NCBI GenBank assembly: GCA_030648265.1
Contig: JAUSHX010000028.1
Coordinates: forward strand, 249-64,248
DNA length: 64,000 nucleotides
From: a bacterium
GTDB lineage: Bacteria > Patescibacteriota > Minisyncoccia > Phycocordibacterales > UBA2100
Direction of reading: 5' to 3'
How positions within the stretch are numbered: the stretch's first letter is position 1; the number at the start of each line of letters is the position of its first letter. Positions 4,755 through 63,613 of this stretch are shown piece after piece. The position numbers and the translations under genes are program-made. The notes beneath the pieces are model-generated. The model did no database searches, was not told the DNA's origin, and was given only the letters and a program-made list of their open reading frames with translations.

Positions 4755-4949
4755 CCCAGCCCCACTTTTGCAAAACACATTTAGAAAATTATGACAAAAT
4801 TACGCAAGCAGGCATATATATCGGCAACGCGCTCCGCCCAGCAAGGGGAGTCCTATTCGGACACGCACGTTGCATGTAACGTATCGGCAAAAGTGGAGTG
4901 GGACGTAAGAGTTTCTAAGCTCGCTTCGCTCACTAACAAACTCTAACGT
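4755..4949 (+). repeat. composite intergenic palindromic element plus conserved pre-ATG hairpin module (copy E1), filling the pilN–pilO spacer
   Basis: Arms cccagccccacttttgc / gcaaaagtggagtggg, followed by gtaagagtttctaagctcgcttcgctcactaacaaactctaacgt and then ATG. Confidence 0.8.
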
Positions 4950-8218: not shown

Positions 8219-8374
8219 CGACTATTTTCGCTTGACCCAGCACCTTTGGCTGGGTGTTGAAAAGTAAGCGTGTATGGGAATGCATAGGGTATACTTATAA
8301 ACGATATGTCGTATGTTGAACAAAAGGTGCTGGGCATAAGAATTTCTAACTCGCTCCGCTCATAACAAATTCTT
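8219..8374 (+). repeat. composite intergenic palindromic element plus pre-ATG hairpin module (copy E2), pilH–pilT spacer
   Basis: Arms cccagcaccttt / aaaggtgctggg; module cataagaatttctaactcgctccgctcataacaaattctt then ATG. Confidence 0.8.
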
Positions 8375-9436: not shown

Positions 9437-9627
9437 AAAATAAGGAGCAGAGCGACTATATTTTTCTAACCCCCCACCACTTTAGTATCCCACAACCTTA
9501 TCTTAGATTTGATACTATGTTGAGACGGTCTCGACGAAATCACAAGATTAGAATATGAGAACGGATACTAAAGTGGTGGGGGGTGTAAGATTTTCTAAGC
9601 TCGCTCCGCTCGCTAACAAAATCTAAC
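9437..9627 (+). repeat. composite intergenic palindromic element (copy E3), pilT–pilC spacer
   Basis: Outer gagcagagcgactatatttttctaac; arms ccccccaccactttagtatcc / ggatactaaagtggtgggggg enclosing a ~70-nt loop with an inner hairpin gagacggtctc; module gtaagattttctaagctcgctccgctcgctaacaaaatctaac then ATG. Confidence 0.85.
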
Positions 9628-22771: not shown

Positions 22772-23014
22772 TATTCGTGTAGTAAATACCCTCATAAACC
22801 CTTGCGTTCATCATATAAGCTTGTAGTTAGCTGTTAATCTACAAGCACAAGGAATGACGCAACCCCCGCTGTGAGCCCCGAGGCGAGCAGAGCGAGCTTT
22901 TCGGGGTGAGTCCAGACCTGTTCCGACGCCCCTAGTTGATAAGAAAATCCTTTAAAATAGAGCACGTAATATCGGCAGTATCAAAAAATTAAGATTTGTG
23001 GGATGATTTGATTG

Positions 23015-25780: not shown

Positions 25781-25868
25781 AAGGTATGCGCTACACACTT
25801 TTTGAACAACTGAAGAAGGTCTTGGAAAAGGACGAGCGATTGGTGGCCGAGGGGGAATTAAATCGAGC

Positions 25869-26005
25869 GACATTCTCACATTCTTGAGAATGTGAGAATG
25901 TCGTGGGAGGGGGAGAATCTATTCTAGTATTTTGCAAAATACTAGAATAGATTGGGAAGGGCGACGGGGCGGGTCATTTCAATGTTTTGCAAAACATTAG
26001 AATGA
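25869..26005. repeat. three long perfect or near-perfect palindromes (34, 38, 32 bp), each followed by a G-rich tract
   Basis: gacattctcacattcttgagaatgtgagaatgtc; aatctattctagtattttgcaaaatactagaatagatt; tcatttcaatgttttgcaaaacattagaatga. A related palindrome at 61853 acts as a terminator. Confidence 0.85.
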
Positions 26006-26049
26006 CGGGGGATAGAAAATAACGGGGGGGAGGGATAGGGAAAAAGGAA

Positions 26050-26420
26050 CATTATTACGCTTAATAATCGTTTGACACCTGTTTCTGTGCCTGTTGCCCG
26101 ACTACGCTGGAGCTCCGCTGGACCGTCTACAGGTGCCTATCATGACCGATAGGCCTGCGATTTGTATCCACGCTACGCGCGGACAAATCGGGAGCCTGAC
26201 ACCTGGTGTTTGTTTACGTCGAAACGGTACCGTCTACAGGCGAATTAACAAATTCGTGGCTCGGCCATAAACTTTGCTGACCGATAGACTCCATTTCGAC
26301 GCGATCTTTACTGGCGACGTAGAGCGAGTGTGATGCGGAAGCGCAGCTTCCGCATCACCGAGCCGAGGAGTCAGAAACCGTCAGCCGGTTTTCGCTTAAT
26401 AATCGCCTACCACCTGCTTC
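26050..26420. other. ~370-nt ORF-free, GC-rich, highly self-complementary region bounded by direct repeats (cgcttaataatcg at 26057 and 26396); candidate structured ncRNA or att/ori-like region
   Basis: Multiple hairpins (gatgcggaagcgcagcttccgcatc; cctatcatgaccgatagg; cacctg…caggtg); no ORF >60 aa on either strand across 25809–26478. Confidence 0.35.
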
Positions 26421-26478
26421 TTTTGAGGAGTACAATGAGCCCTAACGTTTTTGAGTACTGAATTTATAAACGCAGAAT

Positions 26479-27072
26479 ATGAATCAAATTGTCTACATCT
26501 TAATAAATGAGTCTATGCCTGAATTTGTGAAGATAGGCTTTACTCATGGTGATGTAAACGAAAGAATCAGGCAGTTAGATCGGACAGGCGTACCTCTTCC
26601 GTTTGAAGTTTACTACGCTGCAACAGTGGAAGACGCAGAAAAAGAAGAAAAATGGTTGCATTCTATTTTTGCTGATCGTCGGGCACGGGATAGCCGAGAA
26701 TTTTTCAAGATGAATCCTGAATATGCGGCGCTTGCATTAAAACGAGTAGAAATTAGAGAAACTAAGATTTATAGCGTACTGACCCCAGAACAGGAAAAGG
26801 AAGTCGATCAAGTAAAAGAAAGACGCTCAAGATTTCATTTCGCACAGTACGGAATTCCAGTCGGATCTAAACTTACTTTTACGAGAGATTCGGATATTGT
26901 TGCCGAAGTAGTAGAAAACGACAAAATAAAGATTGGAGACAAGGTTGATTTTCTATCAAATGTGGCCCGTGATTTATTGGGATACAGGCGAAGACCTCAA
27001 GGCACTTTGTATTTTGAATTTGAGGGCGAGATCTTAGATGATAGACGCAGAAGAATGGAGGAAGAAGATTAG
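26479..27072 (+). CDS. T5orf172 (GIY-YIG-like) domain protein with DUF4357-like C-terminus
   Basis: IVYILINESMPEFVKIGFT…ERIRQL…EFFKMNPEYA matches the T5orf172 signature. Confidence 0.7.
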   Translation: MNQIVYILINESMPEFVKIGFTHGDVNERIRQLDRTGVPLPFEVYYAATVEDAEKEEKWLHSIFADRRARDSREFFKMNPEYAALALKRVEIRETKIYSVLTPEQEKEVDQVKERRSRFHFAQYGIPVGSKLTFTRDSDIVAEVVENDKIKIGDKVDFLSNVARDLLGYRRRPQGTLYFEFEGEILDDRRRRMEEED

Positions 27073-27173
27073 ACAGGAGGCGGCGGCGCGGCAGGTTTCC
27101 CGGAAATGAGGATTTGTGGGATGATGTTCTGGCGATGGTAAACAATGGACTGGATGTTGCAACAAGGATTCAG

Positions 27174-28013: not shown

Positions 28014-28130
28014 AGCTGTATAGTTATACACATCCGAAAATAAGTAAAGCACCAATCTTAGTGCATAATATGCATGTTACTGCTCGTATTGGTTGATTAA
28101 TTTACCACCTACACTCAATTGGTCGAATTC

Positions 28131-37787: not shown

Positions 37788-37901
37788 TAAAGAAGTTGTT
37801 ATGAGCGAAGCGAATTACAAATTCTTTACCCAGCACCTTTCGCGAAAGGTGCTGGGTGTAAGATTTACTAAACTCATTATCATTCGTTAAGAAAATCTAA
37901 C
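37788..37901 (+). repeat. composite intergenic palindromic element (copy E10), dsrE-like–ilvC spacer
   Basis: gagcgaagcgaattacaaattctttac + cccagcacctttcgcgaaaggtgctggg + tgtaagatttactaaactcattatcattcgttaagaaaatctaac + ATG. Confidence 0.85.
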
Positions 37902-46391: not shown

Positions 46392-46639
46392 CATTTGCCC
46401 GCGCGTAAGCGCGGATGCAAATACTTAACCCGTTCACCATTTTCAGCGTGCGAACAGATTCAGAACGCCCACTGCCGATTGCGGTTTCTTAGACCAATAT
46501 TTATCAGCAAGATAGAAAGTGAGGAAATGGTGTCGGGTTTAAACAGGTTGTGGGGAATAGCTTCTAGCTGCTAGGAGGAAATACGAAAAGAGAAAGCCCG
46601 GTGAACCGAGTCTTTTTTCTCTCGATTCCTCCCGGGCAG

Positions 46640-46924: not shown

Positions 46925-47538
46925 GATTTTTATCTCCTGTGCGAAATAGCTCGACTAACCAGATGGTCTAGCCGTGTCGGCGCTATCTCAAAACGCAGAG
47001 AGAAAGTCAATCAAAAGAAAAAAGAGCCCTTTGGGGGCTCTTTTTTCATGTTCTGCGCAATAAGCCGGATTCTGTCGGGGACAGTCATTTATCTGGGATG
47101 ATTGTAAATTCTAGCAGTCTGACTGCTAAGATTCCATTGTATCAAACCTTAGAAAGAAAAGGGAAAAAGAGAAAGCCCGGTGAACCGAGTCTTTTTTCTC
47201 TCGTTTCCTTCCGGACTTTTTTGCACCGTCATTTTTTCTTCGCAGGCGGACGCCGCCGCCGCGAAAAGATGCGGGACATCTCCCTCACCGTCTCGATTGA
47301 GGGGGGTGGAAGCGCTTTTGCATCTCGCATGGCCTCTTCCAGATCAACAGCATCAACGGCGGGTAACCGCCTTGGTTTGTTACGCTTCATCGCAATCTCC
47401 TCAAATAACTCGACCAACCGATTGATTGACCGTGTCGGCAGTATCGCAAGTTGCAGAGAGAGAGTCAATCAAATGAAAAAGTACCGCAGCAGAACCCACG
47501 AGGTTTCACCTCGTGGGTTCTCAGACATCCAGACACAC

Positions 47539-47567: not shown

Positions 47568-47571
47568 ACAT

Positions 47572-47930
47572 ACCTGCGTTAGGCAGTCGCTGGTCCGCAA
47601 GGGCTAGAGGAAAGTCCGGACACGCCCACGTTTCGTAAGATATGTGGAGCACGGTAGCGGGTAACGCCCGCCGGGGTAATCCTAGGGATGCGAACAGAGA
47701 CGGTTTTTTGCGAGAGCAAAAAACCGCCCCGTGAAATCGCGAAAGCATATTTCACTGGGGCGAGATTGAGCAGTTAAAGGCTCAAGGTGCAACGGCAAAA
47801 ATCCTACCTGCGTGCAAGGTCGTATCAAATCGTGCCATCGGTACGGTTAGAAGAACCGCTTGAGGTGATTGGCAACAATCATCCCAGATAAATGACTGTC
47901 CTCGACAGAATCCGGCTTACAAATGCAGCG
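47572..47930 (+). ncRNA. rnpB: RNase P RNA (bacterial type A)
   Basis: Universally conserved GAGGAAAGTCCGGAC (P4), 5' AGGCAGTCGC and 3' …AATGACTGTCCTCGACAGAATCCGGCTTAC, aligning with the E. coli M1 RNA termini. Confidence 0.85.
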
Positions 47931-48160
47931 AAATGAGCGGAGCGAAAAAGCTTCGCTTTTTCGTTTCCGAATGAGAAAATTTGCACGAAGTTGGGCGCAG
48001 TGCAGCCGAGCGCAGCGAGTACTGCACAGAACATGAAAAAAGAGCCCCAAAAGAGCTCTTTTTTCTTTTCTTCAATACCCCCAAATCCACACCCATCCCT
48101 TGCGGTACTTGCGCACTTCGTATGCTACACTTCCAACATATTAGTCAGATAAATATTATT

Positions 48161-54623: not shown

Positions 54624-54758
54624 TTAATAGTTTCCCGAAAGCATGGCAACAAGCCCCGGTGCGAAGAACAGCACCATACTGATGATAACGAGGACGGCCA
54701 CGACGCCCCAAAAATACTTGAGGGCTTTTTTCGTGTTGCGGTGGAAAAGGAAAGACAT
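54624..54758 (-). CDS. small hydrophobic protein (44 aa) directly downstream of a minus-strand copy of the pre-ATG hairpin module
   Basis: MSFLFHRNTKKALKYFWGVVAVLVIISMVLFFAPGLVAMLSGNY; below the ORF-track size cut-off. Confidence 0.4.
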   Translation of the reverse strand: MSFLFHRNTKKALKYFWGVVAVLVIISMVLFFAPGLVAMLSGNY

Positions 54759-54759
54759 G

Positions 54760-54911
54760 TTAGATTTTGTTAGAGAATGAAATGAGCTTAGAAAATCTTA
54801 CACCCTGTTAAATGCGACTCCGTCGCCCCGCCTACGGCGGGATTTAACAGGGTCAAGAATCTGTAATTCGCTGCGCTCATAACAATATTCTAGATGCTAA
54901 GATTATAGCGT
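54760..54911. repeat. bidirectional composite element (copy E11): central hairpin ccctgttaaatgcgactccgtcgccccgcctacggcgggatttaacaggg flanked by outward-facing pre-ATG modules on both strands
   Basis: Minus-strand revcomp of 54759–54800 is tttaacagggtgtaagattttctaagctcatttcattctctaacaaaatctaac+ATG; plus-strand caagaatctgtaattcgctgcgctcataacaatattctag precedes ftsB-like gene. Confidence 0.8.
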
Positions 54912-59549: not shown

Positions 59550-59701
59550 AAATGCGTACGGGGAAGTGTAATGGACAATAGCAATTTGTTTTCGTCGAAA
59601 ATCTCCTGATTTTCGACGCGATTTTTGCTCCTTGGATTACCAAGGAAAAAATCGTTTGCAAAATGGCTTTAATACGATATAGTCTTGGGCACAAACCAGA
59701 T

Positions 59702-61852: not shown

Positions 61853-61896
61853 ACCGAAAACATTCTCATATTCTTAAGAATATGAGAATGTTTTTA
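61853..61896. terminator. bidirectional terminator palindrome gaaaacattctcatattcttaagaatatgagaatgttttt
   Basis: ~17-bp perfect stem followed by T-tract; the same family as the palindromes at 25869–26005. Confidence 0.7.
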
Positions 61897-62710: not shown

Positions 62711-63613
62711 TTATTTTTGTAGCCAATTGATTACTCGGCCAGAAATTCTATTCGTTTCCTTCGGATTTAACCATTTAATTGCTTTATTACGTCGCCAGTA
62801 AGTAATTTGCCTCTTTGCATAACGCATGCTCTCGCGCACCAACATTTCGTCAAATTCTTTGCGCGAGATTTTCTTCTGCAAAAGGAGGGCTAGAAATTTG
62901 TAATCAAGACCTAGAGATTCCATTTTTTTGTACGACAGACCTTTTTTGTGCAGAGACCTTGCCTCCGCTATCATACCTAGTCTAATTCGCGCGAATAAGC
63001 GAATAGTGATTCTCTCTTCCAATTTTTTCATAGGTAGCGCGATACCTATCCACAGCACATCATACCAAGGACCGTCCTTGGTATTGGATACATGGATATA
63101 GCCCAAAGCGGAGGCAATTTCAAGAGCACGGACAAGACGCCGTTTGTTGTGCCTGTCTATTTCTTTGGCTCGCCGGGGGTCGCGTTTTTTCAGGAGCGCG
63201 AATAATTTCTCCGCAGTCATTTTCTCAAGCTGTTCCCGAAGCTTGATGTTCATGGGTACATTTGGCAGAGCAATCCGGCCAAGCAAGGCGTCAATATAGA
63301 ATCCCGTGCCTCCGGCAACTATGGGTAATTTACCCCTACACGCAACTCGGACGGCCGTCCGAGTTGCGTGTGTTACGAAATCATGAGCAGTGAATATCCG
63401 TTTTGGAGAGACAACATCTAACAAGTGATGAGGGACGCCCCTCATTTCTTGTTTTGTTATTTTTCCCGTTCCTAAGTCCAGTCCTTTGTATACTTGCCGC
63501 GAATCTGCGGAAATGATTTCGCCCCCGAATTTGCGAGCGAGCTCAACAGCCAAGGCGCTTTTGCCGGATGCCGTAGGGCCGACAATAACAAGCACCTTTT
63601 GCCTCTTTTGCAT
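62711..63613 (-). CDS. miaA: tRNA dimethylallyltransferase
   Basis: P-loop GPTASGKSALAV and ISADSRQVYKGLDLGTGK. Confidence 0.9.
   Translation of the reverse strand: MQKRQKVLVIVGPTASGKSALAVELARKFGGEIISADSRQVYKGLDLGTGKITKQEMRGVPHHLLDVVSPKRIFTAHDFVTHATRTAVRVACRGKLPIVAGGTGFYIDALLGRIALPNVPMNIKLREQLEKMTAEKLFALLKKRDPRRAKEIDRHNKRRLVRALEIASALGYIHVSNTKDGPWYDVLWIGIALPMKKLEERITIRLFARIRLGMIAEARSLHKKGLSYKKMESLGLDYKFLALLLQKKISRKEFDEMLVRESMRYAKRQITYWRRNKAIKWLNPKETNRISGRVINWLQK

Follow-up and report, generated by a model that had tools for sequence, protein, structure and literature searches.

The stretch of DNA analyzed here, 64,000 nucleotides in length and referred to as the window, carries a defense island that starts after tRNA-Met (21105). 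The island comprises, in order, a GIY-YIG gene, Fic (SoFic/PDC-S04-like), RadC, the AbiEi/AbiEii pair, a gap, T5orf172, an HNH endonuclease gene on the minus strand, a gene for a fused HTH / N6-N4 / C5 methylase, a further methylase and SocA, and the cassettes around the gap occur in both orientations. PADLOC assigns the neighbors of the gap to AbiE, PDC-S57 and Type II R-M, where PDC-S57 is a candidate single-gene system matched by T5orf172 at E 2e-60; to our knowledge, none of these neighboring systems needs an RNA partner. The gap itself measures 698 nt, from the AbiEii stop codon (25780) to the T5orf172 ATG (26479), and its only ORFs are 33, 58 and 43 aa long. No credible Pfam match was obtained for any of the three (the sole hit, for the 33-aa ORF at E 0.12, is at chance level), and the 33-aa ORF is likewise without a match in NCBIfam. 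Stops abound in all six frames of 26050-26478, which shows neither coding potential nor a pseudogene and contains two small ORFs without a family match. An earlier note on this DNA had described an ORF-free region with palindromes, G-tracts, hairpins and direct repeats, all of which are present with small corrections to their coordinates (Table 1). A likely operator is found between the HNH and methylase genes (TGCATAATATGCA) and another upstream of AbiEi (ATTACTTAAG...CTTAAGTAAT); both are unlike the palindromes of the gap.

Table 1. Features of the gap between AbiEii and T5orf172, and copies of its elements elsewhere in the window
Feature	Position	Strand	Remarks
Type III R-M Mod remnant, first 25-27 codons	25786-25866	+	tblastn to L047/L048
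Palindrome 1 (family F1)	25868-25903		17-nt perfect arms, 2-nt center TG; dG -26.7, z -8.5
G-run 1 (TGGGAGGGGGAG)	25904-25915	+	read from sequence
Palindrome 2 (family F2)	25916-25953		19-nt perfect arms, center TTTTGCAAAA; RNA-fold z -7.7
G-run 2, canonical G-quadruplex motif (GGGAAGGGCGACGGGGCGGG)	25954-25973	+	motif scan
Palindrome 3 (family F2)	25973-26006		17-nt arms, two adjacent mismatches; RNA-fold z -4.2
G-run 3 with G-quadruplex motif at 26024-26040	26007-26046	+	sequence and motif scan
Direct repeat copy 1	26055-26086	+	overlaps small AT hairpin 26051-26068
Double-hairpin module (family F3)	26112-26198	-	HP1 26130-26157, HP2 26158-26190; L052 relative
Hairpin family F4	26209-26305		arms 26209-26227 and 26291-26305
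Perfect hairpin, 13-bp stem, loop GCA	26330-26358		no relative found
Small hairpin AAACCG-TCAGC-CGGTTT	26375-26391	+	one further T at 26392, then CGCTT; not called by terminator scan
Direct repeat copy 2	26390-26421	+	81% identical to copy 1
HP2 dispersed copy	46393-46422	+	starts 1 nt after ribonucleotide reductase stop codon
F4 probable dispersed copy	59581-59625		upstream of hisS, short loop
F1 dispersed copy	61857-61894		intergenic between two housekeeping genes; A-run and T-run flanks

Judged by its homology, the 33-codon ORF at the left edge of the gap is a gene remnant. When compared by tblastn, this ORF (at 25786) matches a longer ORF of the metagenomic contigs L047/L048 at 89% identity over 27 aa, and the longer fragment there belongs to Pfam PF12564 (TypeIII_RM_meth, E 1.9e-20); the remainder of the Mod gene is nowhere in the window, and palindrome 1 begins one base past the last alignable Mod codon. 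Mod is cut at the same codon in more diverged groundwater contigs (L037-L046), where different cassettes follow. The RadC end and the intergenic block upstream are conserved with L047/L048, in which Fic cassettes replace the AbiE pair. Because different cassettes sit between the conserved RadC end and the Mod start, the locus is a hotspot of cassette exchange.

Immediately after the Mod remnant come the three long palindromes, each followed by a G-run, that had been reported for this tract; their arms measure 17, 19 and 17 nt, with mismatches only in the third, which is 79% identical to the second over 28 nt. Five mononucleotide shuffles of the 64-kb window produced no palindromes with arms of at least 12 nt. 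Canonical G-quadruplex motifs number four in the whole window, two of them in the tract, against a shuffle mean of 0.85 per window. The palindromes are not a CRISPR array, as the earlier note had also held: the repeats are 64-79% identical, their spacings are 49 and 55 nt, each is a full palindrome, and there are no cas genes. Like Rho-independent terminators, the tract offers stable hairpins directly downstream of genes, and the 61857 copy of palindrome 1, with its A-run and T-run flanks, resembles a bidirectional terminator. Unlike intrinsic terminators, palindromes 1-3 are AT-rich and are followed by G-runs rather than U-tracts, and the scan called no terminator within the tract; we rejected this class for the tract on these grounds. 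Ordinary terminators with a GC stem and a T-run occur elsewhere in the genome, at 21186, 35688 and 47017.

The stretch from 26050 to 26420 had been described as packed with hairpins, and the hairpins cacctg/caggtg, cctatc..gatagg and cgtcgaaa..tttcgacg and the 13-bp stem at 26330-26358 were all recovered. Folding of 26040-26430 is more stable than that of shuffles on both strands (z -3.5 on the plus strand, z -4.9 on the minus strand), and the hairpins of the tract overall have arms of 13-19 nt with dG -12 to -27 kcal/mol and z -4 to -9. The structure of the tract is non-random. The direct repeats CGCTTAATAATCG said to frame the stretch exist in both copies, at 26058 and 26393 rather than at 26057 and 26396; no shuffle gave two copies, and with its flanks the repeated segment measures 32 nt (26055-26086 and 26390-26421), the copies being 81% identical. 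The interior is composite. In family F4 the arms enclose a loop of 63 nt with a partial copy of F3, namely ACCGTCTACAGG at 26229 and TGACCGATAGAC at 26278, which are the two best-conserved motifs of F3, and from its sequence the loop appears to represent one element nested in another. We also tried the 370 nt as a simple tandem duplication, which scored 51.5 against 35.7 +/- 5.4 for shuffles (shuffle maximum 49.5), and set this candidate aside as weakly supported.

The possibility named first in the earlier note was a structured ncRNA of a defense system. In this reading the ~370 nt would form one RNA with T5orf172 or another neighbor as its partner, and its position inside a defense island, directly upstream of a candidate defense gene, together with the fold stability on both strands, is consistent with such an RNA. 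The comparison with 34 T5orf172 loci from other genomes speaks against it. Nucleotide homology to the window at these loci begins at 26477-26479 and runs to ~27041-27072, covering the ORF alone; we found no upstream similarity to the tract at any of the 34, no palindrome enrichment and no consistent long leader, and the upstream gaps vary from -4 to 760 nt. The link between the tract and T5orf172 that the earlier note implied thus fails, since the loci share only the ORF. Homologues of T5orf172 number in the hundreds at 80-89% amino-acid identity and are spread across very different phyla. The HNH-methylase pair, for its part, stays together at other loci (L049-L051) amid unrelated flanks, and the tract is absent beside these homologues as well. 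Moreover, only 81 of the 370 nt are conserved in the one relative found, described below, and the remainder is an internal mosaic of duplicated make-up whose parts have separate copies.

Database searches bear on the same proposal. The Rfam scan suggested for the tract returned nothing relevant, whether the window was searched at the gathering threshold or the region at E<=10; the best sub-threshold Rfam 15 match in the region reached 20 bits against a 44-bit threshold and is a generic hairpin only. Retron msr/msd, group I/II introns and HEARO/omega RNA were not among the Rfam matches, and no reverse transcriptase, IscB or TnpB lies nearby. Promoter and terminator counts in the tract are at chance level. 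Distant blastn and tblastn searches of plasmid and phage collections gave no match to the tract, and three pattern scans of viral contigs gave none either. A single ncRNA of this length is therefore largely refuted, and we regard it as very improbable.

The separate pieces of the tract, in contrast to the tract as a whole, do have relatives. Palindrome 1 (F1) has a paralogue at 61857-61894 with a 29/32 match (E 3.6e-5), and the two copies differ by one compensatory change from C-G to T-A. Relatives of F2 and F3 occur on L052, a 4.1-kb JGI metagenome contig with DpnI-like, NYN and LexA-methylase genes, which by its gene content is another defense island, unrelated to that of the window. Palindrome 2 with its flanks aligns to L052 1338-1405 on the reverse strand with a score of 42 (shuffles 17.1 +/- 3.3), and the unit there has a comparable G-tract block. 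For F3, 26115-26195 aligns to L052 489-569 at 88% identity over 81 nt (E 3e-19); the similarity stops at both ends of the 81 nt, and the outer flanks are unrelated. F3 folds as two adjacent hairpins; the window and L052 agree fully in its unpaired flanks and in the loop of HP1. HP1 shows a compensatory change from C-G to U-A between these sequences, and the sole mismatch of HP2, A.C when read on the plus strand, pairs as G.U when the minus strand is read. A covariance model (R1) built from the window/L052 pair detected a paralogue of HP2 at 46393-46422 (E 4.7e-4), where one U-A pair is changed to C-G, also compensatory; within the window, a second HP2 model of this kind detected no additional copies.

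The arms and flanks of F4 recur at 59585-59600 and 59611-59622 around a loop of ~10 nt; the gapped alignment of F4 to this copy is not above genomic background, and their kinship is only suggestive. The 64-kb contig has one more intergenic copy each of F1, F3/HP2 and probably F4, and L052 has copies of F2 and F3, which co-occur there within 900 nt. The direct repeats and the hairpins at 26330 and 26375 have no relatives in the sequences searched, and a JGI metagenome scan for CGCTTAATAATCG-N5-CACCTG gave no match. Part of the tract is thus conserved with compensatory changes, namely the 81-nt double hairpin and the palindrome plus G-tract unit.

Several other repeats are found on the contig. 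A leader repeat of ~55 nt (a G-box and a hairpin) stands directly before the start codons of six or more housekeeping genes, and long perfect palindromes number ~10 in the 64 kb, with none in shuffles. The contig's other repeats could not be aligned with the tract. As possible sources of the palindrome units, we considered the cassette leader motif GATTTGTGGGATGAT and the leader repeats of the housekeeping genes, and rejected both because the alignments were no better than those of shuffles.

We consider it probable, if only modestly so, that 25868-26421 is a mosaic, situated at a cassette junction, of interspersed BIME/REP- or BOX-like hairpin repeats, with at least four families of short elements specific to this uncultured lineage. 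Like the REP/BIME elements of Enterobacteria and the REPINs of Pseudomonas, the tract consists of intergenic hairpin palindromes of ~30-40 nt (within the ~20-40 nt expected of such elements) that differ between copies in ways that preserve the stem and form mosaics with other short motifs, with at least four families within 550 nt and one apparently nested. REP/BIME elements are dispersed in several copies; each family of the tract has at least one other copy, on the contig or in L052. The side-roles of REP/BIME elements are those of mRNA 3'-end stabilizers and of termination or pause sites. The tract departs from these elements in having no GTAG-type head, the palindromes sharing no flanking tetranucleotide, and in its perfect and longer arms; G-quadruplex-type tracts accompany the palindromes here, ~2 copies per family were counted in the 64 kb, and this stretch holds no RAYT, as there is no Y1_Tnp or IS200-type transposase among the ~55 ORFs of the window. 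The BOX elements (boxA-boxB-boxC) and RUP/SPRITE of Streptococcus pneumoniae and the Correia/NEMIS elements of Neisseria resemble the tract as modular, composite intergenic repeats that fold, whose modules are duplicated, deleted or nested and which lie between genes and affect termination or expression. They have no sequence relationship with the tract, however, and unlike Correia elements the tract does not have terminal inverted repeats with a target-site duplication, its 32-nt repeats being too long and too diverged for that role.

The evidence against the repeat mosaic should be set beside this. Copy number is low, at two per family in 64 kb; there is no transposase in the window and no GTAG-like head; the kinship of F4 is statistically insecure; and old REP copies seldom keep Watson-Crick arms of 17-19 nt free of mismatches. 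The co-occurrence of F2 and F3 in the L052 defense island could, moreover, mean a cassette-specific function instead of generic repeats.

One such function would be that of an RNA. On its minus strand, the 81-nt double hairpin (26112-26198) may be a dedicated cis-acting or small RNA of the island cassettes, serving at a 3' end or in processing, or else as a leader that controls the next gene, with the rest of the 370 nt as its decayed duplicates. The identity of the flanks and of the HP1 loop between the window and L052 alongside compensatory changes in the stems, and the single non-Watson-Crick position that pairs as G.U on the minus strand only, would fit an RNA on that strand. Orientation agrees, since F3 in L052 lies in sense orientation between the NYN stop codon and a promoter-like motif of the DpnI-like gene, and the HP2 copy at 46393 is in sense orientation just downstream of a gene; the partial F3 copy in the F4 loop, furthermore, keeps exactly the two most conserved motifs. 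Nevertheless, only three sequences are available for F3/HP2, and their covariation is not convincingly above shuffles (62/500). The scan of the module yielded no promoter or terminator and Rfam no family, the window has neither a gene nor a leader motif on the minus strand after the module, and outside the 81 nt the two loci have unrelated flanks. Protein-recognized DNA hairpins such as REPs would give the same pattern. We judge a dedicated RNA unlikely.

The palindromes could instead act as DNA sites. On this account, the palindromes and the boxes AATCG-N-CACCTG / ACCGTCTACAGG / TGACCGATAG would be operator arrays or att/attC-like sites for cassette exchange, which the exchange hotspot, with Fic cassettes in place of AbiE in relatives, and the truncation of Mod at the same codon in two diverged lineages would suit. 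The layout of the palindromes, with inverted arms of roughly 13-14 nt on either side of a spacer of ~8 nt, is reminiscent of the core sites of tyrosine recombinases. The motif CACCTG occurs three times in the 370 nt and 10 times in the whole plus strand, and two of the element families stand together in L052, another defense island. Integron attC sites and CALIN arrays are comparable as hairpin sites at the boundaries of exchangeable gene cassettes, often ones for defense, in which structure is kept over sequence. Unlike these arrays, the tract is without an integron integrase and without R''/R' cores, its cassettes lie in both orientations, and copies of its elements are found at housekeeping loci (61857, 46393). 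The attC class was accordingly rejected, with no RYYYAAC/GTTRRRY core on either strand of 25781-26480 and no tyrosine recombinase in the window.

More broadly, no recombinase, integrase, transposase, reverse transcriptase, relaxase or Rep was found among the ~55 ORFs of the window, and the tRNA-Met end is not repeated; with the attC cores also missing, nothing supports the origin or att region that the earlier note had entertained. Its further suggestion of binding-site arrays is disfavored, because the arms differ between copies while symmetry is kept, as fits a hairpin more readily than a site for a sequence-specific dimer. The probable operators of the adjacent regulators, which differ from the tract palindromes, also speak against it. 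DNA sites of either kind are thus, in our estimation, distinctly unlikely. A related and still less probable reading, which we would call a long shot, takes the palindrome plus G-quadruplex unit and the 81-nt double hairpin as dedicated defense-cassette junction elements of an uncultured groundwater lineage, serving as sites for recombination or regulation in a system that would shuffle cassettes much as integrons do, but independently of an integrase. This reading would explain both the recurrence of F2 with F3 in L052 and the breakage of Mod at the same codon in separate lineages.

Further classes were evaluated for the tract and rejected. A MITE would call for terminal inverted repeats with a 2-10-bp duplication, whereas the 335-bp unit here is bounded by 32-nt direct repeats and there is no IS in the window. 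ToxI-like repeats of a Type III toxin-antitoxin system, which are tandem, nearly identical units of ~36 nt directly before a ToxN/AbiQ-type endoribonuclease gene, were dismissed on account of the diverged palindromes and of the downstream gene, which is T5orf172 / PDC-S57. A group I/II intron with a homing-endonuclease ORF found neither an intron model match nor a split host gene, and a dif/Xer site is contradicted by a GC skew that is monotonic across the window and by the presence of the palindrome more than once.

We also weighed an assembly artifact, in which the tract, or its adjacency to AbiE and T5orf172, would stem from a chimeric join made where palindromes and a gene with multiple copies occur. 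When the same run was assembled independently by Logan, contigs broke off within palindrome 1 (L001, which ends at 25897) and within T5orf172 (L036), a gene that many genomes in samples of this type share in highly similar form. Because of these two breaks, the join across 25898-26900 rests on one assembly only. Short-read breaks are, however, expected at hairpins and repeats and are no proof of a misjoin, and the tract sequence itself is real, because genuine relatives of its elements occur both on this contig and in a second data set. An artifact of this kind seems to us highly improbable.

Returning to the repeat mosaic, a plausible course of events can be proposed for this locus. The cut of Mod after ~25 codons would have left a dispensable non-coding gap in which repeats piled up, and other defense cassettes, namely the T5orf172 ORF and the restriction-modification pair of HNH and fused methylase, now adjoin it. 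We infer that spread took place at the DNA level, the elements being mobilized in trans as non-autonomous hairpin units or else propagated by recombination or gene conversion. When transcribed, their stable hairpins would block read-through and 3' exonucleases: transcription on the plus strand after the AbiE operon would be stopped by the three palindromes, and transcription on the minus strand by the double hairpin and then by a C-rich, G-poor sequence that resembles a Rho-loading site. Rho loads on C-rich, G-poor sequence. Because the hairpins would block both strands, the cluster would insulate the adjacent cassettes from each other. Such an insulating side-role is plausible as pure inference, and the sense orientation of the F3/HP2 copies just downstream of genes, in L052 and at 46393, would suit it. 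The palindromes without U-tracts and the absence of any terminator in the scan argue against a classical terminator role.

If the tract is indeed a mosaic of interspersed repeats, the uncultured small-genome bacteria of this lineage carry hairpin families of their own that are comparable to REP and BOX elements, and these repeats pile up at the junctions of defense islands, where they break short-read assemblies and can mimic ncRNA genes. If the elements mark cassette boundaries, they could be used to delimit and predict the exchange of defense cassettes in genomes without recognizable recombinases.

The T5orf172 ORF, which PADLOC assigns to the candidate single-gene defence system PDC-S57, was compared with 34 T5orf172 loci from other genomes (L002-L035). 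Identity is 80-89% for the protein and 70-82% for the DNA, and the homology extends precisely from start codon to stop codon and no further. The hosts span CPR phyla, Omnitrophota, Gammaproteobacteria, Acidimicrobiales, Flavobacteriaceae and one Woesearchaeote. The gene behaves like a free-standing and very promiscuous ORF, either selfish or defensive.

Comparison with contigs carrying the same Type III Mod gene (L037-L048) revealed that the truncated Mod of the window breaks after the codon ...GEL, a break shared with the diverged groundwater contigs, while the sequence that follows differs between the two. Between RadC and the start of Mod, the window has an AbiE cassette and the relatives have Fic genes.

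In three different genomes, island cassettes carry a short motif, GATTTGTGGGA(T/A)(G/T)AT, placed 6-9 nt 5' of their ATG; a G-rich box often comes before the motif, which may be an extended -10 element for leaderless mRNAs. Downstream of the window copy at 27111 there is only a truncated ORF, which extends into the HNH gene from the 3' side. A separate leader repeat of ~55 nt, in which a G-rich box is followed by TAAGATTT, a hairpin and AAATCTAAC, directly abuts at least six housekeeping start codons (pilO, pilT-like, pilC, ligA, ilvC and one more); the palindrome ACCCAGCACCTTT/AAAGGTGCTGGGT is often found 5' of this repeat.

Coordinates of repeats, motifs and genes (window unless a contig is named)
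Feature	Positions	Remarks
T5orf172 / PDC-S57 ORF	26479-27072	
Type III Mod, truncated	25786-25866	
Island-cassette motif	22993-23007; 27111-27125	
Island-cassette motif, L037 (groundwater contig)	3188; 6138	
Island-cassette motif, L052 (metagenome contig)	471; 1245	both (-)
Housekeeping leader repeat	4890-4949; 8323-8374; 9572-9627; 16306-16361; 37845-37901; 54754-54805	last copy (-)
Tandem paralogue array	13441-15658	direct repeats 151 nt, spacing ~675 nt
Tandem paralogue array	11046-12590	direct repeats 134-300 nt, spacing ~520 nt
RNase P RNA gene	47571-47935	
Inverted RNase P RNA duplication	47013-47105 vs 47875-47919 and 48020-48069	98% and 92% complementary
Perfect palindromes in prepilin peptidase and miaA ORFs	13088-13126; 13360-13392; 63338-63371	15-17-nt arms
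TGCATA-A-TATGCA	28070-28085	
Palindrome, L047 (contig with longer Mod ORF)	138-179	19-nt arms

Duplication is also seen elsewhere in the window. Two tandem arrays of paralogous genes with direct repeats include pilin-like N_methyl proteins and, at 13441, a third GIY-YIG gene. The RNase P RNA gene has its 3' end and downstream terminator duplicated in inverted orientation ~770 nt upstream, and the two ORFs bracketed by this duplication gave no Pfam match.

Long palindromes occur outside the hairpin tract (25868-26421) as well. Perfect ones lie within the prepilin peptidase and miaA ORFs, which is odd for coding DNA, and they may represent in-frame insertions or indicate that the ORFs have been over-extended. 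The divergent promoter region of the HNH endonuclease and HTH-methylase genes holds TGCATA-A-TATGCA. This palindrome looks like a site for a controller protein or an operator, and it has no relation to those in the hairpin tract. On the related contig L047 a further palindrome sits just 3' of RadC, within ~170 nt missing from the window. The intergenic DNA of this lineage seems to gain and lose long palindromes.
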